A DNA stretch of 50,984 bases, taken from the sequence record NC_100129.1; one strand, 5' to 3'. Both the position numbers and the translations under genes were made by a program. Shown one piece after another: positions 1 through 40,417 of this stretch. The stretch comes from a phage. The notes beneath the pieces are model-generated. The model had not been told where the DNA came from. It saw nothing but the letters and a program-made list of their open reading frames with translations, and made no database searches. The stretch's first letter is position 1; each line of letters opens with the position of its first letter.

Positions 1-360
1 GTTTTTTGCGTTCGCAATACATTGAAAAACAGCGCGGAAACATGCCGCCCTGAAACGCGAACACGCGCGAACAAAATAAACAGCTTCTGTTTGCTGACGC
101 CACCAGGACGAGGCGAGAGGGCAACTACTTTCTATACACCCCGCCACACATGATTAATCACACACGCAATCAATCGAAAAACCTGGTAAACGCATATCAC
201 ACTAACCAATTTAACAGTTAAGCAACTTATTCCGATTATTCTTTGAGCGTGGAATAACTGGAATAATGCACCAGGCATGGAATAGCACTTTTTGTTAAAA
301 CCGAATCATTCTGATCGGGTACATTACACACATCGAAACAAACCGCTCAGGAGATAGCAA
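1..360. other. non-coding leader region upstream of early plus-strand genes
   Basis: No ORF; contains CGCGAAC repeats and first dyad motif copy. Confidence 0.55.
282..300 (+). promoter_or_regulatory. dyad motif copy (atAGCACTTTTTGTTAAAA)
   Basis: Exact copy of recurrent motif; TACATT 20 nt downstream; upstream of first early gene. Confidence 0.6.
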
Positions 361-633
361 ATGAACATCAGCAAAACCACTTTCAATTTCGCTAAGCGTC
401 ACGGTCTGGATCTGACTGTTGAGAACTTAGGAGATGTTCTGCAACTCTGCATTTGGGAAGCAGATAACGATTGCGAGTGGCTTTGCTCTTATCGTATCAA
501 CTACGATTGCTTGACCTGGCACGGCAATATCTATCTGCCGCAAGAGGTGAAAGAAGAATTGCCAGCGACTATCAACAACGAAGTTTTCTTGCGCCGGGTG
601 CTGAAATTTATCAGTGAGGAGATCAAGAAGTAA
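361..633 (+). CDS. hypothetical early protein (90 aa)
   Basis: ORF with GGAG RBS upstream; first gene after dyad motif at 282-300. Confidence 0.5.
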   Translation: MNISKTTFNFAKRHGLDLTVENLGDVLQLCIWEADNDCEWLCSYRINYDCLTWHGNIYLPQEVKEELPATINNEVFLRRVLKFISEEIKK

Positions 634-899
634 TGGCGGTGATTACCGAAAATGATTTAGATCTGGCTGAGGCATTTTGCAGGGCGGCCAGGGCTAACCT
701 GGATGTGACTACTAAATTTCTTCCGGTGCGCCCACTCTTTTCATGTGCGCCCGTGAACAAACCGACTCGCGTAATGATCGTGATTGAAGGTGATGGCCTG
801 TACGCTGAAAAGACGTTCCACATCAGCAACATTAAAGGCCGCGCTGATTTTATCAATGATGTTTGCTTATTGCAGGAGAAGAAAAAATGCTTGATGTGA
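633..899 (+). CDS. hypothetical protein (88 aa)
   Basis: ATG overlaps stop of upstream ORF (TAATG); overlaps next ORF. Confidence 0.4.
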   Translation: MAVITENDLDLAEAFCRAARANLDVTTKFLPVRPLFSCAPVNKPTRVMIVIEGDGLYAEKTFHISNIKGRADFINDVCLLQEKKKCLM

Positions 900-1099
900 T
901 CAAGAAAGCTCATGAAATGGGTATGGATGTTTCAATCTGCGACGCGTCCGCGCGTCACCCGTTAGCGCCGGAAAATATGGTTGTAGTCATTGTGCATAAT
1001 CACCGCTATGAGTGCCGTGCGATGTTTGATAAGCATGATAAAGAGGCGCAACGCTGTTTTATCAACGAAGTTTGCGATCTGTATGGGAGAATCAACTGA
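887..1099 (+). CDS. hypothetical protein (~70 aa)
   Basis: Internal ATG at 887 preceded by AGGAG RBS; start chosen over 863. Confidence 0.45.
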   Translation: MLDVIKKAHEMGMDVSICDASARHPLAPENMVVVIVHNHRYECRAMFDKHDKEAQRCFINEVCDLYGRIN

Positions 1100-1500
1100 T
1101 GGCTACCGTAACCTTGAAATTTGTTGGCGAATGCAAAAACTCCTGGCACTTCTCAAGCGATCGCGTTTACGAACTGGACAAGGACAAGGACGGCGACGCG
1201 TTCGTTTACGACAACAACATGCTTAAGCTGTATGTCGAGCTCCGCGTCGATGGCGATTTTGTCGGCGTAAATTTTGAGCATTACCGATTCCAGGTTGGAA
1301 GCTATGATCAGATGGGCGTGACGTATCGCGTATCGGTGCGATGCCGGAAGACTGGCAAGACCACGATTGCCTATATGGGTAACAGCGAGACGCTCGCGAA
1401 GAATAGCTACGAGGCGCTGGCGAACAAGCCTGATTTTGTGCGCGACTTCCGCATCATTCTGCAACGCCTTGAACCTGTCACCATGATGGAATCTGACTAA
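1099..1500 (+). CDS. hypothetical protein (133 aa)
   Basis: ATG overlapping upstream stop (TGATG), GGGAGA RBS. Confidence 0.5.
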   Translation: MATVTLKFVGECKNSWHFSSDRVYELDKDKDGDAFVYDNNMLKLYVELRVDGDFVGVNFEHYRFQVGSYDQMGVTYRVSVRCRKTGKTTIAYMGNSETLAKNSYEALANKPDFVRDFRIILQRLEPVTMMESD

Positions 1501-1502
1501 AC

Positions 1503-1520
1503 AGCACTTTTTGTTAAAAC
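1503..1520 (+). promoter_or_regulatory. dyad motif copy
   Basis: AGCACTTTTTGTTAAAAC after stop of upstream ORF; followed by GGTACATTACACCCATCGACAAC leader. Confidence 0.6.
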
Positions 1521-1577
1521 TCAATCCTCGTATTCCGGTACATTACACCCATCGACAACGAATATGAGGATTTGAAA

Positions 1578-1730
1578 ATGGTTACTCTGATTACCTGGGA
1601 ACACGAAAACAGCCAGCCGGAAGCGCGCGAATTTGAAACCGTAGCGGCATGTTATAACCTGGCGAAAAATGGCGGCTTCTACAAGGCGCAAATTGTTAAC
1701 GAATTTGGAGTTGTTGATTATGAGTTTTAA
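1578..1730 (+). CDS. small hypothetical protein (50 aa)
   Basis: Short ORF not in the ORF track, read manually; AGGA RBS, downstream of motif 1503-1520. Confidence 0.3.
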   Translation: MVTLITWEHENSQPEAREFETVAACYNLAKNGGFYKAQIVNEFGVVDYEF

Positions 1731-2001
1731 GTTTTATAGCTATACCGATACAGTGGATTTTGAGGGGATACAATTGCCCCTCCCGAACATATACCGCTAT
1801 ATCACTCGTGACGAACGCGGATTTATTGAAGCCTGGCGCGCGAAGCCAGTTCGGGATCTTGAATTTGGCGGCTTCCGCTCCCTTGAGGGTGAGTTGCCTA
1901 TGTGCTTCGGGCATCAAAGCGGTGAAAACCTTCCGGTTATTACGCGCAAGTATCGACGAGAAACACGAAATCTTATCTCTGTAACTGGAAAAGTTGTTTA
2001 A
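1720..2001 (+). CDS. hypothetical protein (93 aa)
   Basis: ORF; ATG overlaps previous small ORF; stop followed by dyad motif. Confidence 0.5.
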   Translation: MSFKFYSYTDTVDFEGIQLPLPNIYRYITRDERGFIEAWRAKPVRDLEFGGFRSLEGELPMCFGHQSGENLPVITRKYRRETRNLISVTGKVV

Positions 2002-2020
2002 TAGCACTTTTTGTTAAAAA
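2001..2020 (+). promoter_or_regulatory. dyad motif copy
   Basis: ATAGCACTTTTTGTTAAAAA; TATATTACACCCATCGACAAC follows. Confidence 0.6.
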
Positions 2021-2075
2021 CGATGTGCGCCTGAATGGTATATTACACCCATCGACAACAAGCGAGGATTTAAAG

Positions 2076-2273
2076 ATGGAAAATCAGGTTGATGTTAAAG
2101 TTGTTAAGCGCGACAAGTCTCACGAAAAAGGTTTGTTTAAGAAAGGTGCTGAAATCACCATTGACCTTGATGATATGGAGGCGTACCACTCAGGGCTAAC
2201 TTGGAACGTTCGCAAATGTGAAAACGGCCTGTTCAAGTTAAATGGCTTTGAAACATACATGGAGATCATCTAA
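2076..2273 (+). CDS. hypothetical protein (65 aa)
   Basis: Internal ATG with GAGGA RBS, downstream of motif 2001-2020. Confidence 0.5.
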   Translation: MENQVDVKVVKRDKSHEKGLFKKGAEITIDLDDMEAYHSGLTWNVRKCENGLFKLNGFETYMEII

Positions 2274-2485
2274 TGGCAAAGCAATTAAAACTTAAATGCG
2301 TAGAAACTTATAACTCAATTTGGAAATTCACGCGCGAAAAAGAATATCCACTAATGGGAAATCTCAAAGAAGATCCTCATGTAATTTCAGATAATGGTCT
2401 TCACCTTTATTTAATGGAATACAACGATGGATATATTGGTGCTGGTGTTCCAGGCCATAAATTTAAGATGAAAAATAAGAAATGA
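2273..2485 (+). CDS. hypothetical protein (70 aa)
   Basis: ORF, start overlaps upstream stop (TAATG). Confidence 0.5.
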   Translation: MAKQLKLKCVETYNSIWKFTREKEYPLMGNLKEDPHVISDNGLHLYLMEYNDGYIGAGVPGHKFKMKNKK

Positions 2486-2593
2486 GGCTGGTAATATTCC
2501 GCAACGCCTGGATGGTGGCTGTTGCAAATGACCATTACGGCGGCGACGGTAAACGCGCCGCTCGACACTCTTACTTTAACTGAGGAAAATATA

Positions 2594-2833
2594 ATGACTG
2601 CTAAATCAATCAAGGTTGAAAATATTCTTGCTGCTGTTAAGGCGCACCACCGCTTAATTGTTCGACTTGATAAAACAAGCGGAATCAGCCAATTAACCAT
2701 CACTGAGGGTAAAGGCGGTTACACTGTTGGCATTCATCCAGGCGGCAAGCTGCGAAAATTCAGCGAGGCCGGATTAAAAGAAATGCTGAATGAATACTCT
2801 TTTTACATTCAAAGTTGGAAGGATGCAAAATAA
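2594..2833 (+). CDS. hypothetical protein (~80 aa)
   Basis: Internal ATG with GAGGA RBS. Confidence 0.45.
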   Translation: MTAKSIKVENILAAVKAHHRLIVRLDKTSGISQLTITEGKGGYTVGIHPGGKLRKFSEAGLKEMLNEYSFYIQSWKDAK

Positions 2834-2878
2834 TGCTCCACGGGCGCTATAATGCGCCCACAAATACAGGAAACAACC

Positions 2879-2989
2879 ATGAATAAGTTTTTAGATATTA
2901 CTTTTGCGTGCGTTTCTGGAAGCATTGGATTGGCGTTAATCGCTGCTGGCGCTGCTTTGATTTACATTTCTTTTGAGGTGATTTCATAA
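2879..2989 (+). CDS. small membrane protein (36 aa, single TM)
   Basis: Manually read ORF MNKFLDITFACVSGSIGLALIAAGAALIYISFEVIS; AGGAAACA RBS; hydrophobic core. Confidence 0.35.
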   Translation: MNKFLDITFACVSGSIGLALIAAGAALIYISFEVIS

Positions 2990-3213
2990 TGAGTCAGGAC
3001 GGATTTTTTGAACGCCTTCAAATGGCAGAAGATGCCGGACTAAATAAAGAGGCGGCGCTTGAAGTTGCATATAAGATTAAGACTCTTGATGATGCGCTAG
3101 GTGATATGGATATGAATCTTGAATCAAGCGCAATATTTGCAGATCCCACTATGATTGTTAATGATTGTGGATGCGATTTCGATCCTAGCTGTCCTCGCTG
3201 TTTTCCGTTTTGA
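2989..3213 (+). CDS. hypothetical protein (74 aa)
   Basis: ORF, start overlaps upstream stop. Confidence 0.45.
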   Translation: MSQDGFFERLQMAEDAGLNKEAALEVAYKIKTLDDALGDMDMNLESSAIFADPTMIVNDCGCDFDPSCPRCFPF

Positions 3214-3223
3214 GGTAATGACG

Positions 3224-3928
3224 ATGTATAAAGGTTTAATATTCTCCCTATTTGATGGGTCTGGTAAAGCCGTTAAAGATTGGGCTGATAATGGCTATAA
3301 GTGCATTTGCTTTAATGCTGACGGTGGCGATCACGGTGATTACCAGTCAGTGCGCATAAAGCATGAGAATATCGAATACGTTAACGTCTGGATTGACGAT
3401 GCTTTTTATGTTAAGGCAATAAATAATGAGTGGGGCAATCCTGATTTTATTATGGCCTTCCCACCATGCACTGACCTTGCAAATAGCGGATCTCGCCATT
3501 GGGCTAAAAAACGCCTTGAGAATCCATCGTTCCAGGATGAGGCCGCCGACACTTGCAGAATCGCGGCTGATATAGCTGATTATTTCGGTGTTCCTTACAT
3601 GATCGAAAATCCGGTTGGCAAGTTGTCAACGTTATGGCGTAAGCCTGATTATACGTTCCATCCGTGCGATTACGCTGGCTATCTGCCGGAAGATGATAAA
3701 CATCCCGACTTCCCTGATATTATTCCGGCGCGTGATTGCTACTTTAAGAAAACATGCCTTTGGACTGGAAACGGCTTTATCGTTCCACAGAGAAAACTGG
3801 TATTGCCAACCGAGAAGGATAACCCAGGCTGGGCTAAAACTGGTGGCAAATCATCCAGAACAAAGATGATACGCTCCCTCACTCCGCGAGGATTTGCTCG
3901 CGCCGTATTTGAGGCAAACTCAAAATAG
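3224..3928 (+). CDS. compact C5-cytosine DNA methyltransferase-like protein (234 aa)
   Basis: Motifs in canonical order: FSLFDGSG (motif I), AFPPCTDLANSG (PC motif IV), MIENPVG (ENV motif VI); no room for a normal target-recognition domain; stop TAG is part of dyad motif. Confidence 0.55.
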   Translation: MYKGLIFSLFDGSGKAVKDWADNGYKCICFNADGGDHGDYQSVRIKHENIEYVNVWIDDAFYVKAINNEWGNPDFIMAFPPCTDLANSGSRHWAKKRLENPSFQDEAADTCRIAADIADYFGVPYMIENPVGKLSTLWRKPDYTFHPCDYAGYLPEDDKHPDFPDIIPARDCYFKKTCLWTGNGFIVPQRKLVLPTEKDNPGWAKTGGKSSRTKMIRSLTPRGFARAVFEANSK

Positions 3929-3944
3929 CACTTTTTGTTAAAAC
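3925..3944 (+). promoter_or_regulatory. dyad motif copy
   Basis: Overlaps stop TAG of methyltransferase-like gene; followed by hairpin GCCCGAC..GTCGGGC and CATAAT. Confidence 0.6.
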
Positions 3945-4000
3945 GCCCGACCTTGAGTCGGGCATAATGCGTTTCAACGAAAACAACTGGAGAAAATCAA

Positions 4001-4387
4001 ATGAAAGTTATCCGCAATTCCGACAACAAATTGATGAACGGTCGCTATAAAACTGTTTACACAAAAGTAGCTGGCAGCGACGACGTGATCGAGGTGGAGG
4101 AATTTCAGGTTAAGGCGCTGGCTAAGGGCGCGAAGTGGGAATCAGCCAACCAGGACGAATACCGCACTATCAAGGCAAAGACGATTCTATGTACGTTTGT
4201 TGATCACCGGATGGCAACCAAAAAAAGTTTTAAAGCTGGAAAGCGTTACCAGGTCGAACAGGGTCGCGTTCTTGGATCAGTTGCTGGTTACGTCTTCGAT
4301 GAGGACGGCGACCGATGGACGCTCTACCGCGAGGAGGTCGGATTCTCTGCTGGTTACTCTTATCTTTTTGAGGCCAAATATTCATGA
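4001..4387 (+). CDS. hypothetical protein (128 aa)
   Basis: ORF with GGAG RBS after motif 3925-3944. Confidence 0.5.
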   Translation: MKVIRNSDNKLMNGRYKTVYTKVAGSDDVIEVEEFQVKALAKGAKWESANQDEYRTIKAKTILCTFVDHRMATKKSFKAGKRYQVEQGRVLGSVAGYVFDEDGDRWTLYREEVGFSAGYSYLFEAKYS

Positions 4388-4605
4388 TCCGCAGTGAATA
4401 CCGATATAAAGTAACTCACGCCACAACTGCAACTTTCAAGCCTGGCGATATTGTCAGGCCAATAAAGAGAACTGCGGAAGGTTGGCTGATTGGGTATTCA
4501 TATCACAAGTCGCTTTACTTCACTTTTAAGGATGATGTAACCGGAGAATGCTACAGCGACCGCCAGCCGGATCGCCTACTGGTTGCAATCGAGCGGATCA
4601 AATAG
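4384..4605 (+). CDS. hypothetical protein (73 aa)
   Basis: ORF overlapping upstream stop; stop TAG inside dyad motif. Confidence 0.5.
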   Translation: MIRSEYRYKVTHATTATFKPGDIVRPIKRTAEGWLIGYSYHKSLYFTFKDDVTGECYSDRQPDRLLVAIERIK

Positions 4606-4620
4606 CACTTTTTGACAAAT
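4602..4620 (+). promoter_or_regulatory. dyad motif copy, variant (..TTTTTGACAAAT)
   Basis: ATAGCACTTTTTGACAAAT overlapping stop TAG; hairpin GGTGCGGT..ACCGCACC downstream. Confidence 0.5.
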
Positions 4621-4672
4621 AAGGGTAGTATTGGTGCGGTAACATACACCGCACCAAATAGGAGTCGATTTA

Positions 4673-6256
4673 ATGAATTTTTCATTTGAAACAAGTCAGT
4701 TATCACCGAAACAAATCATTGAAACCGCCGAATCTCAAGGTATTTCCCCTGTTCGTGTATCCATTCAGGCCAACGGATACCGCCAATCGTCAAGCTATTG
4801 GGGACAGGTGGAAGATATTAACGGCGGTAACGACCGCTACCCTGTCATTTCACTTGGGAATGATGTTGATGTAGTTGGTAAGCTGGCGCGCAATCTTGCG
4901 AGATCTGTTCAATTCCCTGAATCATCGGCCTACATGCACTTTATCGGATGTATTTCTGCCGCTATGCTTGGTCGATTCACAGTTGACTACCACGGAACCG
5001 ATCAGCCGACCGCGCTTTACGTTGTGACAAGCCAGCCTCCGTCGGCAGGTAAATCCGCGATTAACAGTCTGGCTATTGCGCCTATGGTTGCAGAAGTTGA
5101 GCGCATCAACGAGCAACGCAAGAAGGAACGGAAAAAGATACAGGCAAAACTTGCCGGACTACTAAAGGAGATGAAAAGCGAACGCTCCGGCGCAGATATG
5201 GAGATTCTATATCAAGAAAAAGAAGATCTGGAAGAAAAACTAAGCAAACTTTGCGATGTTGTTTTCCCTGTCTCCGACACCACACCAGAGGGATTAGCAA
5301 AGATAAATAACAGACAAGGAAACTTCGCGGTTATTTCTGATGAAGCAACCAGTATTAACAGTCTGCTTGGCCTGACTTACGCGAATAGCGAGCGCAAAAC
5401 TAACAGCGAACTTGTGTTAAAAGCATGGGATCACGGCCATGTTTCTATCGCCCGTTCTAATGCAGACAATAACATGAGTTTTTTTGCGCTTGGATGTATG
5501 AGTGTTATCGCCCAGGATGAAACTATTAATGGCATCATGGATGCAGGATCTCGTGGCATCGGTGTAAGCGAGCGTTTTCTACTGGTGCGCGAACAGCCGT
5601 TAATCGGTACGCGTGTATTTGTTGATGAGAATGGTGATTCAACTTACGAACCAGTAGACGGTGAATTGAAAGCGCAATACTTTCAGTTGGTGCATAACAT
5701 TATGAGCGAAATTAACGTTTCTCTGAAAGTTAGCCGTTCTGCAATGCGCGTGCTGAACATTGCACGCCAGGATATGGAACCGCATCTTGCCGACGGCGGA
5801 AAGTTTTCGCATACGATGCTACGCGGTGCGCTGGGTAAAATGGATAAGCAGGTGATCCGCATTGCTGCCGTTCTGCATGTGATACGCAATTGGTTTAATC
5901 CTGCTGGATACCCGCAAAAGTCTAGAGAGATTGACGTTGACACGATGCAAGAAGCCTTGCTGATGTTCCATGAATTGAGCAAAACGTATATCAGCGCGGC
6001 GAACGCGTCCGGCTATGCTGGTGATGATGCCGAGATGTCAAAACTGATTGAGTTAATCACCCGCCACGGTAAGGCAAATAAAGGCGTATTGAATGTCCGC
6101 GCTTTGTATGAGGCAGCACGCAAGGTAAAACCTTTCCTGGGGCAAGCTGGCGTGATGAAGCGCATAGAATCGCAACTTCTTCCGATGCTTGAGCAAAAAA
6201 ACTACGTTTGTGTTATTAATGGTGTTATTTTTGTGAATCCTGTGTTAATGGGGTAA
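4673..6256 (+). CDS. putative P-loop NTPase, replication-associated (527 aa)
   Basis: Deviant Walker A SQPPSAGKS and Walker B-like AVISDEA; large early gene; family assignment uncertain. Confidence 0.45.
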   Translation: MNFSFETSQLSPKQIIETAESQGISPVRVSIQANGYRQSSSYWGQVEDINGGNDRYPVISLGNDVDVVGKLARNLARSVQFPESSAYMHFIGCISAAMLGRFTVDYHGTDQPTALYVVTSQPPSAGKSAINSLAIAPMVAEVERINEQRKKERKKIQAKLAGLLKEMKSERSGADMEILYQEKEDLEEKLSKLCDVVFPVSDTTPEGLAKINNRQGNFAVISDEATSINSLLGLTYANSERKTNSELVLKAWDHGHVSIARSNADNNMSFFALGCMSVIAQDETINGIMDAGSRGIGVSERFLLVREQPLIGTRVFVDENGDSTYEPVDGELKAQYFQLVHNIMSEINVSLKVSRSAMRVLNIARQDMEPHLADGGKFSHTMLRGALGKMDKQVIRIAAVLHVIRNWFNPAGYPQKSREIDVDTMQEALLMFHELSKTYISAANASGYAGDDAEMSKLIELITRHGKANKGVLNVRALYEAARKVKPFLGQAGVMKRIESQLLPMLEQKNYVCVINGVIFVNPVLMG

Positions 6257-6651
6257 TGATGTTCATTCTGGATCTCTACAGATGGTGTGAGTCTTACGAC
6301 TGGTTTACTCGTCAGCACATTGCAAAATTTATCTATCAGCACAGAGAATGTGAACGCCTGGCGAAGCAGGCCGGATTCACCCCGCGCATGTTCGCTTCCA
6401 TGCTATCGAAAGAGTTTTGCGCAAGAATGATGGGCGCTGGTTATCTGGATGGCGTTGAAGGTAGATTTTGGTGCATTGACGGATCTGCCCGTAGGCCGTT
6501 CGGATTCGAATTTTACACCTTTGAGGGAATGCAAAATGAATGGATAAGGGATATGGCACGGATAGGAGAAATGAGTGATGATGAACTCTTTGGAGCAAAG
6601 TCTAATAGACAAGATATTGAAATTTTGCGCCGTAAATTCAATATCACATGA
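6256..6651 (+). CDS. hypothetical protein (131 aa)
   Basis: ORF, ATG overlaps upstream stop (TAATGATG). Confidence 0.5.
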   Translation: MMFILDLYRWCESYDWFTRQHIAKFIYQHRECERLAKQAGFTPRMFASMLSKEFCARMMGAGYLDGVEGRFWCIDGSARRPFGFEFYTFEGMQNEWIRDMARIGEMSDDELFGAKSNRQDIEILRRKFNIT

Positions 6652-6772
6652 GGATTTCATTCATGCGTTACTTACGCTGCTTTTATCGGATATGCGTGCC
6701 TTTGACACTTCCGAACACAATTTATGTGATGATGATGGTGTCTTGCTGGTTACGGTGAAGCGGATGGAATAG
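6575..6772 (+). CDS. hypothetical protein (start uncertain)
   Basis: ORF overlapping previous gene by 77 nt; stop TAG inside dyad motif 6769-6788. Confidence 0.3.
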   Translation: MMMNSLEQSLIDKILKFCAVNSISHEDFIHALLTLLLSDMRAFDTSEHNLCDDDGVLLVTVKRME

Positions 6773-6788
6773 CACTTTTTGTTAAAAC
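6769..6788 (+). promoter_or_regulatory. dyad motif copy
   Basis: Overlaps stop TAG; followed by hairpin, TATATT and TCATCGAAACGA leader. Confidence 0.6.
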
Positions 6789-6844
6789 GCCCGGCTTATA
6801 GTCGGGTATATTTGTTTCATCGAAACGAATATGAGGAAAACAAA

Positions 6845-7063
6845 ATGAGCAACAAATTTTTTACCGTGGCGCTGATTATCAAACATGAAAACGGCACTAC
6901 CACTGAGATCCCTACAAAATTCCCAGCCGACTCCTGGACTAACGAGCAAGCTGTCGGATATGTTGAGGAAATGGCTAAACGCGTAATGGCTGGTCATTAT
7001 GATATTGAATTTCAGGAAAACCAGAAGCTAACAAATCATTCACACGAATGGACTGATGCTTAA
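6845..7063 (+). CDS. hypothetical protein (72 aa)
   Basis: Internal ATG with GAGGAAAA RBS after motif; followed by bidirectional terminator. Confidence 0.5.
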   Translation: MSNKFFTVALIIKHENGTTTEIPTKFPADSWTNEQAVGYVEEMAKRVMAGHYDIEFQENQKLTNHSHEWTDA

Positions 7064-7067
7064 AAAT

Positions 7068-7092
7068 AAAGGAGGCTTTAAGCCTCCTTTTT
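7068..7092. terminator. bidirectional rho-independent terminator
   Basis: Hairpin GGAGGCTTTAAGCCTCC flanked by A-run and T-run between convergent genes. Confidence 0.75.
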
Positions 7093-7464
7093 CTTTGTCC
7101 AGAAGTAGATAGCAAGCATTACGGCGAATGTGGCAAAACATACGATTATCGGGTCGTACCATCTGCCGTTATCACCCTGCACAACCTGGATTTTTTCCGC
7201 ATTGATGGTATTGGCCTGAATGGTTGATGCCTTAACCGTCTTCTTGCTTGATGTATCCACCTTTTCGACCTTCGATTCTTTAAAGGTGTTTTCCTGCTTG
7301 CTGCTGGAGTCTTTTTTTGCGGTAATACCAACGGCCTGCTTCACGTTCTCCGCGCCAGCCTGGGCGCTAATATCTGGCTTACTTCCGGTCAGTATGTCAA
7401 CTGGACTTATAGCAGAACAGCCGGACAATAAAACCGCCAGTGCAATAGCTGTGATTCGTTTCAT
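7078..7464 (-). CDS. unimolecular spanin (lipoprotein with C-terminal TM anchor)
   Basis: N-terminal signal plus lipobox LLSGC and C-terminal TM IIVCFATFAVMLAIYFW in one 128-aa protein; directly downstream of endolysin; this architecture is the T1 gp11-type u-spanin. Confidence 0.75.
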   Translation of the reverse strand: MKRITAIALAVLLSGCSAISPVDILTGSKPDISAQAGAENVKQAVGITAKKDSSSKQENTFKESKVEKVDTSSKKTVKASTIQANTINAEKIQVVQGDNGRWYDPIIVCFATFAVMLAIYFWTKKKEA

Positions 7465-7952
7465 TACAGATCCCTCATGCAGTATTTAAACTCAACCGCG
7501 CGACGGTTGCGTAAACCTTTAGAGCGTTCTTTCTTTCCGGTTTTAGGATTCGTGAATTTATCCCACCGCCATAACTGCTGGCACGCTTCCGGAAATCTGC
7601 CCTGATTAATCAGTTTAAGCATTGTCGAATTGCGGAATGCACCCACACCAGCGTTAAAAGTGAAACTATACATCGCCGCTCTCATCGTGGCTGGGATTTC
7701 AACCTTCACGCGCTTGTCTACTTCATCCTTCGCCACCTTGATATGTTTTGCCAGTAGCGCATCGCATTCGCGCTTTGTGTAGGTCTTGCCGATAATCACA
7801 TCTTTTCCGGTGATTCCGGCGCATACCGTCCAGACTCCGGCAATATCTTTATATGGCGTGTATCTGATCCCTTCGATTTCCTCAAGAAGTGGAGAAGTAA
7901 GAGCAAGCGCAGCGCCGATGGCGACGGCGACGACGCTATTTCTTGCGCTCAT
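7464..7952 (-). CDS. endolysin, lysozyme-like with N-terminal signal-anchor (SAR-type, inferred)
   Basis: 162 aa; N-terminal weakly hydrophobic Ala/Gly-rich segment; [26 protein letters not shown] resembles the catalytic Glu region of phage lysozymes; lies between holin and spanin. Confidence 0.7.
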
Positions 7953-8188
7953 TATTTACCCCTAATTTCAATTGCTTTTTTAAAGTCACCACTATCAAGC
8001 GCCTTCTGGAAGGCTTTACTATCACGCCACCGCAGATAAGCGCCCCACACGCCGAAAATAGCCATCAATACGAAGCTGGCAATTGCAATTGCAGTTTGTC
8101 CGGTTACTGCTCCAGTGATTGATGCGCCACCCGTGCCTGACGTTGCAGCGTTCAAAAAATCTTTCATTTTTAGATCCTCTTTATTCAA
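7952..8188 (-). CDS. holin (single TM, pinholin-like)
   Basis: 78 aa, one TM ([20 protein letters not shown]), charged C-terminus, first gene of lysis cassette. Confidence 0.6.
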
Positions 8189-10428: not shown

Positions 10429-11130
10429 TTAACTCCGCTTTCTTGCCCGACGCTCTGCCACGGAAGGGCAAATGTCGCTGATTTTAACGTATCGCGTTTT
10501 CTGATGCTCGCCTTCTTTCAGTTCACGCATGATGAAAATAACGCTTCCTTTGTTGTTGCCCTGTACTGGTTTACCTGTAAGTGCGGAAGTAAACGCCAGG
10601 CGTCCGGTGCGTGAATATTCTGTTCCATCCTCTTTGTAAACTTCTCCAGTGATCCAGATTATTTCCGCCGCGTGCTGTTGCGCTTCATAAAACCATCCTG
10701 TTGATGTGTCGCATGGTAAAAGCATGTCGATCTGGTTGTTGTGCTCCATCTGCTCAATCGCTTTCTTAACGAATGGCGTGATGTTGCTGTATGGTGGATT
10801 AAGCCAGATGTGCTTATTGCTACCCCACCAACGCTTTAAGCAATTCGTTTCCTTGCTGTAGAATTTTTCGCATACAGCATTATCTTCGCTTGCTGCCGCG
10901 TCGATGTCATAATCACCATATTCGCTTTCCATCCATGCGACAAGCTCTGATGGCGTAGACCATAAATCGCGCACAACGTCCGGCGTATTGCTTCCGTTAT
11001 ATCGGTTGCCAGTCACTTTGAAATATTGATTTGACTTAACTGCCTGGTAATGGCCTCCGGTCGCTAGGGCATTACCTACAAACGTTTCTCGTTCGATTTG
11101 TTCAAAGCTGATTTCAATTTCTTTCTTCAC
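10429..11130 (-). CDS. dam: DNA N6-adenine methyltransferase (phage Dam family)
   Basis: Catalytic NPPY motif (WLNPPYSN); 233 aa typical of phage Dam-type orphan methylases. Confidence 0.8.
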   Translation of the reverse strand: MKKEIEISFEQIERETFVGNALATGGHYQAVKSNQYFKVTGNRYNGSNTPDVVRDLWSTPSELVAWMESEYGDYDIDAAASEDNAVCEKFYSKETNCLKRWWGSNKHIWLNPPYSNITPFVKKAIEQMEHNNQIDMLLPCDTSTGWFYEAQQHAAEIIWITGEVYKEDGTEYSRTGRLAFTSALTGKPVQGNNKGSVIFIMRELKEGEHQKTRYVKISDICPSVAERRARKRS

Positions 11131-39061: not shown

Positions 39062-40345
39062 TTATTCTCCCTCAGTGCCTGGCTCCGGCTCCACTGGCTC
39101 CGGCTCCGGCAATTTGATGTTGTTGGTGTCTTTCAGTTTAACTTTCGGCGCGATAGCTCGCAATGTGTCGCGTGCTTCGTCTGCGTCAATAAATTGGCCT
39201 TCGATAGCTGCTTTCAGAGAAGTAATATTTTTGTTAAGGATTTCAGCCTCGTCCTTATCGCTCGGCACGCTCAACGGCGCAAAGTCGATGCTCCACTCGT
39301 TTTCAGTGATCAGGAACGGCAGGAGAAATTCCAGGATTGGCTTGTAGTCCTCAATGCGTTTTCGTTCGATCAGTTTGTAGAACGTTTCAAGCGCGGTGTT
39401 TTGACTGGCGCTCACGCCGCCGACGTTTTTATTTTTCAGAATGATTTCATGGATACCTGACAGGGAAACAATACGATCAAGTTTCTTCTCCAGGAAGGCA
39501 TCCACGCCTGAAATGTCAGAATTAAGAACGTCGTATTCTTCATCTTCCGCGTCAATCCCGATTGCACGGCCTACACCGCTTTCATCGTCAACCTGCGCTA
39601 GTCGCAAGCGTGCCGCCTGTTCACCTTCGTTGTCGTCGCACAGGTCAGCCAGTCCGCGTGCTTTCCATACCGCCTGTTGTTTGCGGCGTAGTAGCTGTGT
39701 CGCCAGTTCTTCACAATAGTTGTAATCAACGATGGCCTCAATCAGCCGCTTATTGAGAATTGACTCGCCCCATCCATCGTTACGTCGTCTCTGCGCGTTA
39801 GGAATACGTTCACCGTCGATAACACAAATTCGTGTGTAGTGTACTTGATATTCCGGCATATCATCGCCAGGTTGGATGGTGTAAAGCACTGGCTCACCGT
39901 AGCGGACGTTTCGTGGATTTGTTTCACGTTTTTCTACTCGGATCTGGAAGCGGTCATATACGCGGATGTCTTCAAGCATTGCGCCTTCGCTGACGGCTGA
40001 CTTTAACGCTCTCCCGTCGTTGACTATTGCCACAATTGCAGCGCCACCGAACAATCGCGACCAGCACAGGGCATCAATGATTTTTGCATTAAGGCGCTTC
40101 TCATCCCAAATAGAGCGGAAAGCGGCCTCATCTTCTATGCCATCAATATTAAACCCAGGCGTCACCATCTCTTCCGGCACAACGTCGATGATTCTTTTTG
40201 CCATGCCATCAACGGCGTAAAAGTCGGCAAGCGTTCGCTGTTCCAGTCCTTGCATGTAAAATGGCTGCTCGACTCGTTGGTTTTGGCTTCGCTTGAAAAT
40301 ATCGTTGTACCCGTCGTACTTTATGGTTTTATTTTTCTCACTCAT
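39062..40345 (-). CDS. portal protein
   Basis: 427 aa between terminase large subunit and head morphogenesis gene; acidic C-terminus. Confidence 0.75.
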   Translation of the reverse strand: MSEKNKTIKYDGYNDIFKRSQNQRVEQPFYMQGLEQRTLADFYAVDGMAKRIIDVVPEEMVTPGFNIDGIEDEAAFRSIWDEKRLNAKIIDALCWSRLFGGAAIVAIVNDGRALKSAVSEGAMLEDIRVYDRFQIRVEKRETNPRNVRYGEPVLYTIQPGDDMPEYQVHYTRICVIDGERIPNAQRRRNDGWGESILNKRLIEAIVDYNYCEELATQLLRRKQQAVWKARGLADLCDDNEGEQAARLRLAQVDDESGVGRAIGIDAEDEEYDVLNSDISGVDAFLEKKLDRIVSLSGIHEIILKNKNVGGVSASQNTALETFYKLIERKRIEDYKPILEFLLPFLITENEWSIDFAPLSVPSDKDEAEILNKNITSLKAAIEGQFIDADEARDTLRAIAPKVKLKDTNNIKLPEPEPVEPEPGTEGE

Positions 40346-40357
40346 GATTATTCTCCT

Positions 40358-40386
40358 AATAAAAAAGGCTGGAAAAATCCAGCCTT
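40358..40386 (-). terminator. terminator/attenuator between terminase and portal genes
   Basis: AGGCTGGAAAAATCCAGCCT hairpin plus T-run on minus strand. Confidence 0.65.
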
Positions 40387-40399
40387 GATTATACTTTCT

Positions 40400-40417
40400 T
40401 TTAGCAATTCGTGCTAT
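40400..40417 (-). promoter_or_regulatory. dyad motif copy, palindromic variant (ATAGCACGAATTGCTAAA)
   Basis: Overlaps stop TAG of terminase large subunit; followed on minus strand by TATAAT, terminator hairpin and portal RBS. Confidence 0.55.

Follow-up and report, generated by a model that had tools for sequence, protein, structure and literature searches.

A compact Dcm-like orphan cytosine-C5 methyltransferase in a T1-like coliphage

The genome of NC_100129.1, a Warwickvirus (Drexlerviridae) T1-like coliphage, was analysed over its whole length of 50,984 nt (the window). On its + strand, positions 3224..3928 encode a compact protein of 234 aa that carries sequence motifs of DNA cytosine-C5 methyltransferases, while a Dam-type adenine methylase is encoded elsewhere in the same genome. 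What does such a small protein do, which site would it recognise, and what would a virulent phage gain from it? A preliminary description, made from the sequence, had offered two answers: an anti-restriction methylase of unusual specificity, or a repurposed fold with a non-methylating role. Here we report the gene, its motifs, its predicted fold, its orthology and the site statistics of the genome. We consider it very probable that the gene encodes an active orphan C5-methyltransferase of a minimal phage family, which depends on S-adenosylmethionine (SAM), likely targets CCWGG, pre-protects the phage DNA and, as a side effect, is sensed by the retron Ec86. As a phage Dcm, the feature is known and annotated already, and both an activity and a role as trigger of Ec86/Eco1 have been published.

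Motifs, fold and family of the compact protein

The open reading frame (ORF) runs from the ATG at 3224 to the TAG at 3926-3928, and it contains, in the expected order, motifs I, IV and VI of C5-methyltransferases, which the preliminary description had recognised. Motif I (FxGxG), the SAM-binding loop, reads F10-D-G12-S13-G14 and aligns with FAGIGG of E. coli Dcm and SLFDG of DNMT3B; G12, S13 and G14 are invariant among close relatives, and the motif is looser in the wider family (LFDxTG in a 50-member alignment). Motif IV is P80-P81-C82, with the catalytic Cys82 of the PPC encoded by the codon at 3467-3469, and motif VI is E128-N129-P130, aligned to ENV of E. coli Dcm. Both C82 and E128 are invariant in 50/50 diverse relatives, down to 33% identity, and conservation across the 50 members reaches at least 90% for N129, P130, K175, R217, T220, P221 and G223. 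The putative equivalent of motif VIII is K175-K176, with lysines instead of the arginines of RxR, an assignment that follows a published superposition on DNMT3A. Motif IX reads R217-SLTPRG-FARAV, compared with RRLTPRECARL in E. coli Dcm, and the C-terminal N232 is invariant.

Target-recognition domains of classical type II C5-methyltransferases span roughly 80-100 residues. In the phage protein only ~40 residues (177-216) separate motifs VIII and IX, and there is therefore no room for a classical target-recognition domain, as the preliminary description had argued from the length of the protein. The distance from E128 to motif IX is 89 aa, compared with about 175 aa in E. coli Dcm. Judged from the alignments and the predicted model, the only space for a target-recognition element lies at residues ~184-216 (3773..3871, + strand), which consist of a variable loop (~189-206) followed by the conserved GGKSxRTKxI. 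A conserved insertion occupies residues 147-174.

Sequence libraries are of little help in placing the protein. The Pfam scan did not reach the threshold of PF00145 and gave no match even at E <= 10, the NCBIfam scan gave no match, and 5 of the 50 relatives touched PF00145, all below threshold (best E = 0.0039). PHROG 757, 'DNA methyltransferase', matched residues 2-233 with E = 2.1e-85 and was the only library match among Pfam, NCBIfam and PHROG; a PADLOC type II methyltransferase match was marginal (E = 0.008). Searches of PDB sequences with the single protein or with a 25-sequence profile returned sub-significant DNMT3B and M.HaeIII matches over motifs I-IV (E 0.05-0.4), and with a more diverse 50-sequence profile these matches were lost too. 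Since sequence alone cannot place the family, a structure comparison was needed. The AlphaFold2 model, built with 25 homologs, has a mean predicted local distance difference test score (pLDDT) of 88.3 and a predicted template modelling score of 0.87, and displays the alternating strand-helix pattern of a Rossmann-like methyltransferase; residues ~184-216 are modelled as a loop and two short helices with pLDDT 76-85. When the model was compared with the PDB using Foldseek, the top 50 matches were all DNMT3A/B/C catalytic domains (best E = 1.9e-6). The predicted structure settles the question in favour of a class I Rossmann-like fold with C5-methyltransferase topology. Of the checks proposed in the preliminary description, profile comparison thus gave no match to PF00145, whereas structure prediction bore the expected fold out.

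The predicted kinship to DNMT3 is distant, with an identity of only 13-19% to the catalytic domains of DNMT3A and DNMT3B. These eukaryotic de novo DNA methyltransferases have CpG as their target and act as oligomers that include regulatory domains. Compared with M.HhaI and M.HaeIII, which belong to PF00145, the phage protein has PCT rather than PCQ in motif IV, ENP rather than ENV in motif VI and KK rather than RxR in motif VIII; it lacks a partner endonuclease and reaches none of the thresholds of Pfam and NCBIfam. E. coli Dcm (CCWGG, 472 aa, vsr-linked) has motifs I, IV, VI and IX in the same order, and the same target site and chemistry are probable. However, the phage protein is half as long, has neither a counterpart of the recognition domain nor the N-terminal extension, and does not resemble it significantly in sequence (BLASTP E = 5.7; hhalign over 125 columns, probability 2.6%, with motifs I, IV and VI in register). 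No vsr-like gene was found among its neighbours. Orthology to the host Dcm was considered and rejected, as the alignments are not significant, and 'Dcm-like' is a functional label only.

The compact protein belongs to a large family. In a 90%-clustered database, 3367 homologs were found at E <= 1e-3; among the 120 of these that were listed, nearly all are 225-262 aa long and none has a Pfam domain. A profile search of a 50%-clustered library returned 2090 representatives, 939 of them at E <= 1e-10. A size of ~210-260 aa is common to thousands of relatives and is, as judged from these sequences, a conserved family trait and no truncation. By tblastn, 1500 of 50,697 phage records contain a homolog, in genomes of 40-165 kb, mainly from Escherichia and Klebsiella phages and also from Salmonella, Vibrio, Arthrobacter and other phages. 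A megablast search with the gene found 107 phage records, nearly all from T1-like coliphages. The closest relative is Escherichia phage WaterSpirit (Drexlerviridae; Tempevirinae; Warwickvirus), with 99.4% nucleotide and 100% protein identity. Relatives already carry annotations such as 'Dcm', 'dcm: DNA-cytosine methylase', 'putative C-5 cytosine DNA methylase' and 'Dcm-like C5 cytosine methyltransferase', and the protein has the features of the Drexlerviridae 'Dcm-like' proteins of PHROG 757, namely a full-length match to the profile, a length of ~230 aa and a position upstream of a DUF3987-type helicase.

Published activity of the orthologs

The most informative relative is encoded by the BASEL phage KarlJaspers (Bas06, MZ501090). 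Its bas06_0055, a 'Dcm-like C5 cytosine methyltransferase' of 711 bp, is 87% identical to the NC_100129.1 protein over the full length, with C82, E128, K175 and K176 at identical positions; the NC_100129.1 protein differs mainly by a 2-residue indel (a deletion) and several substitutions in the loop 186-197. The two phages belong to one subfamily (Drexlerviridae; Tempevirinae) but to different genera, Hanrivervirus for KarlJaspers and Warwickvirus for NC_100129.1. The flanking genes match as well, with a 225-bp ORF upstream and 387-bp and 222-bp ORFs and a 1584-bp helicase gene downstream, and both genes start in the same Shine-Dalgarno and ATG context.

Phage K42 is KarlJaspers-like, with 95.4% identity at the genome level (Wang et al., bioRxiv 10.1101/2023.08.16.553469). 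This study is also cited as Cell Rep 2024;43:114857; the identity between K42 Dcm and the NC_100129.1 protein is an estimate through KarlJaspers. Wang et al. demonstrated that expression of K42 Dcm is toxic only in Ec86-carrying cells. Mass spectrometry coupled to liquid chromatography (LC-MS) against a 5-methylcytosine (5mC) standard revealed high 5mC on the Ec86 multicopy single-stranded DNA (msDNA) with wild-type K42 Dcm, and no high msDNA 5mC with a C82A/E128A/K175A/K176A mutant. The same four residues occur at the same positions in the NC_100129.1 protein; K175 and K176 were mutated only as part of this quadruple mutant. Changing CCTGG of the msDNA to AATGG, ACTGG or CATGG abolished defence, and 34 of 35 sequenced Ec86-sensitive phages encode Dcm (Wang et al.). 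Later literature takes Dcm as an established trigger of Ec86. These results contradict the suggestion in the preliminary description that the fold is repurposed and non-methylating, since the 5mC made by K42 Dcm depends on residues conserved in NC_100129.1. The NC_100129.1 protein would probably act as a trigger of the retron Ec86/Eco1 as well, a role known from K42 Dcm.

A more distant relative is the DNA cytosine methyltransferase gp52 of Pantoea phage vB_PagS_AAS23, which has 235 aa (compared with 234 aa in NC_100129.1), is 61% identical and is likewise encoded upstream of a DUF3987 helicase. BLAST detected no domain in gp52, while HHpred matched it to a C5-methyltransferase at 99.7% (PMC8004638). 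In the same study, AAS23 DNA was reported to be Dam- and Dcm-methylated on the basis of restriction digests with a panel that included EcoRII and MboI. AAS23 differs from NC_100129.1 in host and genus, and the host may have had a share in the methylation of its DNA.

Formation of 5mC, triggering of Ec86 and Dcm-type methylation of phage DNA have thus been shown by others for orthologs. We infer that the NC_100129.1 protein shares this activity and site, and that protection from restriction would be the selective benefit. We then propose a mechanistic model, whose catalytic steps follow from the fold and the conserved residues. Cys82 would attack C6 of a flipped-out cytosine, Glu128 would protonate N3 of the cytosine, and Lys175 and Lys176 would replace the arginines of motif VIII. 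The methyl group of SAM would then be transferred to C5 of the cytosine. With CCWGG methylated, the phage DNA would be shielded in advance, as it replicates, from restriction of the EcoRII type, and the phage Dam would do the same in parallel for GATC. As a side effect, CCTGG in the stem-loop of the Ec86/Eco1 msDNA would be methylated in retron-carrying hosts and the abortive-infection defence would be switched on.

Target site and competing explanations

Which site the enzyme methylates was approached through the sites that the genome has kept. Observed and expected (O/E) counts of restriction-type palindromes were compared using a maximal-order Markov model and third-order simulations over the whole genome. 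Palindromes are strongly avoided in NC_100129.1: 21 of the 64 possible 6-bp palindromes are absent, and 31 of 64 have an O/E below 0.3. GAATTC occurs 2 times against 15.5 expected and GATATC 0 times against 12.7; a near-absence of such sites may simply explain why phages of Warwickvirus and Hanrivervirus resist EcoRI and EcoRV. GGWCC is missing altogether (24.6 expected), GGSCC occurs 4 times (20.6 expected), GGNCC 4 times (45 expected) and CCSGG 8 times (25.4 expected). CCWGG, with 132 sites observed and 138 expected (O/E 0.96), is the only one spared among the four C/G-rich 5-bp palindromes tested (CCWGG, CCSGG, GGWCC and GGSCC). GATC (O/E 0.85), CCGG (0.99) and GCGC (0.99) are not avoided either. 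KarlJaspers shows the same pattern (CCWGG 1.03, GATC 1.00, CCSGG 0.17), and the strong palindrome avoidance is absent from phages T1 and LeonhardEuler. The retention of CCWGG and GATC fits self-protection by Dcm and Dam, because sites that a phage methylates itself need not be lost; Dcm and Dam of the host could have a share in it. T1, which has no copy of the gene, was considered as a natural control for CCWGG avoidance and proved uninformative, as it shows little palindrome avoidance of any kind.

Together, three indirect lines, namely the msDNA mutants with the analogy to E. coli Dcm, the AAS23 digests and the site statistics, make CCWGG the most likely target. The unusual specificity envisaged in the preliminary description finds no support here, as the CCTGG mutants, the digests and the spared CCWGG point to the ordinary Dcm site.

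Several points weigh against an active enzyme with this target. All experimental evidence was obtained with orthologs whose identity is at most 87%. Wang et al. assumed CCWGG specificity by analogy with E. coli Dcm, to which the phage protein has no significant similarity and whose recognition domain has no counterpart in it. The msDNA mutations could have disturbed contacts with the effector instead, host enzymes may account for the methylation seen in the AAS23 digests, and protection by the host Dcm could be another source of the CCWGG sparing. T1 keeps CCWGG too without the gene (O/E 0.82), though it shows little avoidance in general. Neither PF00145 nor NCBIfam matches the protein, and in the BASEL study the methyltransferase genes of Drexlerviridae bore no simple relation to resistance against restriction. 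Beyond the AAS23 paper (PMC8004638), the literature offered nothing specific on methylomes or EcoRII data of T1-like coliphages, and no methylome, in vitro specificity or experimental structure of any family member was found in the literature searched.

A first alternative is an active C5-methyltransferase whose target is not simply CCWGG. Such an enzyme could read a shorter, relaxed or structure-dependent site (a hairpin or single-stranded DNA, such as msDNA), or could dimerise like DNMT3. The short stretch between motifs VIII and IX, the lack of similarity to the E. coli Dcm recognition domain and a loop (~189-206) that varies by subfamily between an NPGW type and a GYSxQ type are all in line with this idea. 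So are the closest structures, DNMT3A/B, which have small recognition domains and act as oligomers. In Dcm-positive MG1655 with an empty vector, msDNA 5mC was low, and it was high only with the phage enzyme (Wang et al.), which hints that the host and phage enzymes act differently on the msDNA hairpin. However, mutation of either C of the msDNA CCTGG abolished defence (Wang et al.), AAS23 DNA was reported as Dcm-methylated with a panel that included EcoRII (PMC8004638), and CCWGG alone was spared among the palindromes of its class. A relaxed enzyme that produces many RmC sites would moreover be expected to make phage DNA sensitive to McrBC in E. coli K-12, whereas relatives have been isolated on MG1655. 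We regard a target other than CCWGG as unlikely on balance.

Much less probable still is a repurposed fold that binds DNA or SAM without methyl transfer, transfers another group (carboxymethyl from Cx-SAM) or acts on RNA like Dnmt2. Motif I is not a strict FxGxG in the wider family, motif VIII has lysines in place of arginines, and the protein goes unrecognised by Pfam; however, no family member departs from the catalytic Cys and Glu, and a scan of eight neighbouring ORFs revealed neither a Cx-SAM synthase (CmoA-like) nor another modification gene. The genuine 5mC formed by the ortholog, detected by LC-MS and dependent on the catalytic residues (Wang et al.), largely refutes such a role, as far as ortholog data can speak for this protein. 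The least credible alternative, to which we assign next to no weight, is that a full-length methyltransferase has decayed or been truncated and that the ORF is what is left of it, without function. The length of the protein is ~70% of that of the smallest classical type II C5-methyltransferases (e.g. M.HhaI, 327 aa), but the compact length is kept in 3367 proteins, in 2090 clusters formed at 50% identity and across 1500 records of phages, the motifs are invariant, the model is confident from end to end, and the ortholog is functional (Wang et al.). Family-wide conservation, as read from the sequences, refutes this alternative.

Returning to an active enzyme of minimal size, it is tempting to speculate further, with a good deal of doubt, that the family represents the smallest self-sufficient sequence-specific C5-cytosine DNA methyltransferase known, invisible to Pfam and nearest to DNMT3. 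In such a case a 5-bp or other site might be read by the ~40 residues and the insertion at 147-174, perhaps with the help of a dimer or of a preference for hairpins or single-stranded DNA.

Start codon, neighbourhood and meaning for the phage

The start of the gene can be read in two ways. A Shine-Dalgarno sequence, GAGG, lies at 3212..3215 on the + strand, 8 nt upstream of the ATG at 3224, in a context (GAGGTAATGA) that is identical in KarlJaspers; the upstream ORF (74 aa) stops at 3213. The mechanical ORF list also allows a TTG start at 3155, giving 257 aa, and a similar long form is annotated in GenBank for some relatives, such as WaterSpirit (768 bp). The longer reading is less likely, as it overlaps the upstream gene and the N-termini of the family align at the ATG. 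In phages that escape Ec86, Wang et al. reported a point mutation located 9 bp upstream of the start of dcm, which we place within the GAGG, in KarlJaspers and NC_100129.1 alike. Because the escaper position would then fall in the Shine-Dalgarno sequence, it supports the ATG as the true start. The 234-aa form is thus favoured on three counts: the Shine-Dalgarno and ATG at 3212-3226, the way the N-termini of the family align, and the mutation published for the escapers.

Small ORFs of one direction, the gene among them, form a block from 361 to 7063, which ends at a bidirectional hairpin at 7068-7090. The preliminary description had placed the gene in the first early operon. The co-directional block agrees with an operon, and 'early' gains nothing from a promoter and terminator scan of 1-7200, which found no enrichment over shuffles and therefore says nothing on early transcription. 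A perfect 7-bp GC-rich hairpin, GCCCGAC-CTTGA-GTCGGGC, was read directly at 3946..3964 on the + strand, 18 nt downstream of the stop codon; it lacks a T-run, was not called by the terminator scan and may be an RNA-stabilising or processing element. The hairpin at 7068-7090 is a 10-bp palindrome with T-runs on both strands (AAAGGAGGCTTTAAGCCTCCTTT) and resembles a bidirectional terminator. It marks the junction of the + strand block that contains dcm and the lysis genes on the - strand, which encode a spanin (7078-7464), an endolysin (7464-7952) and a holin (7952-8188).

The eight neighbouring ORFs scanned encode small proteins of unknown function and a PHROG 2373 helicase; none encodes a nuclease, and the methyltransferase is thus an orphan. 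The helicase, a conserved Drexlerviridae protein of 527 aa (PHROG 2373; DUF3987 in AAS23), is encoded at 4673-6256, two genes downstream of dcm, and the position of dcm upstream of it is kept in Warwickvirus, Hanrivervirus and Sauletekiovirus. The arrangement differs elsewhere in the family. Phage T1 (NC_005833) has Dam and no compact Dcm homolog by tblastn, and in LeonhardEuler, a close relative of T1, a copy with 56% identity lies at 39707-40411, at the promoter-proximal end of a leftward operon and away from the helicase. The gene has therefore been gained, lost or moved within Drexlerviridae.

The companion Dam-type N6-adenine methyltransferase (233 aa, NPPY motif) is encoded on the - strand at 10429..11130, where the preliminary description had located it. 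It matches PF05869 with E = 8.2e-62 and 208 bits, where the cutoff is 28.1, and is 93% identical to the KarlJaspers 'Dam-like N6-adenine methyltransferase'. In the E. coli contig JBRAPV010000005.1, a lambdoid prophage (NinG, RusA and Q antiterminator) carries, in the region 4494-6747, a 61%-identical copy of the compact gene two genes downstream of a PF05869 Dam, and the pairing of Dam with a compact Dcm therefore recurs in temperate phages. The core of the preliminary description, a compact C5-methyltransferase fold beside a Dam in a virulent T1-like phage, was right by the structure model, the Foldseek matches and PF05869; as a whole, that interpretation is partly supported.

For annotation, 'Dcm-like orphan C5-cytosine methyltransferase' is a safe name despite the lack of a Pfam or NCBIfam match. 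Together with Dam and the extreme avoidance of restriction sites, the Dcm-like enzyme would form part of the anti-restriction strategy of the phage. It is probably at the same time a liability, as its activity would be sensed by the retron Ec86/Eco1. For phage therapy and host range, a phage with the gene is predicted to be sensitive to hosts that carry Ec86, the E. coli B/BL21 lineage among them.
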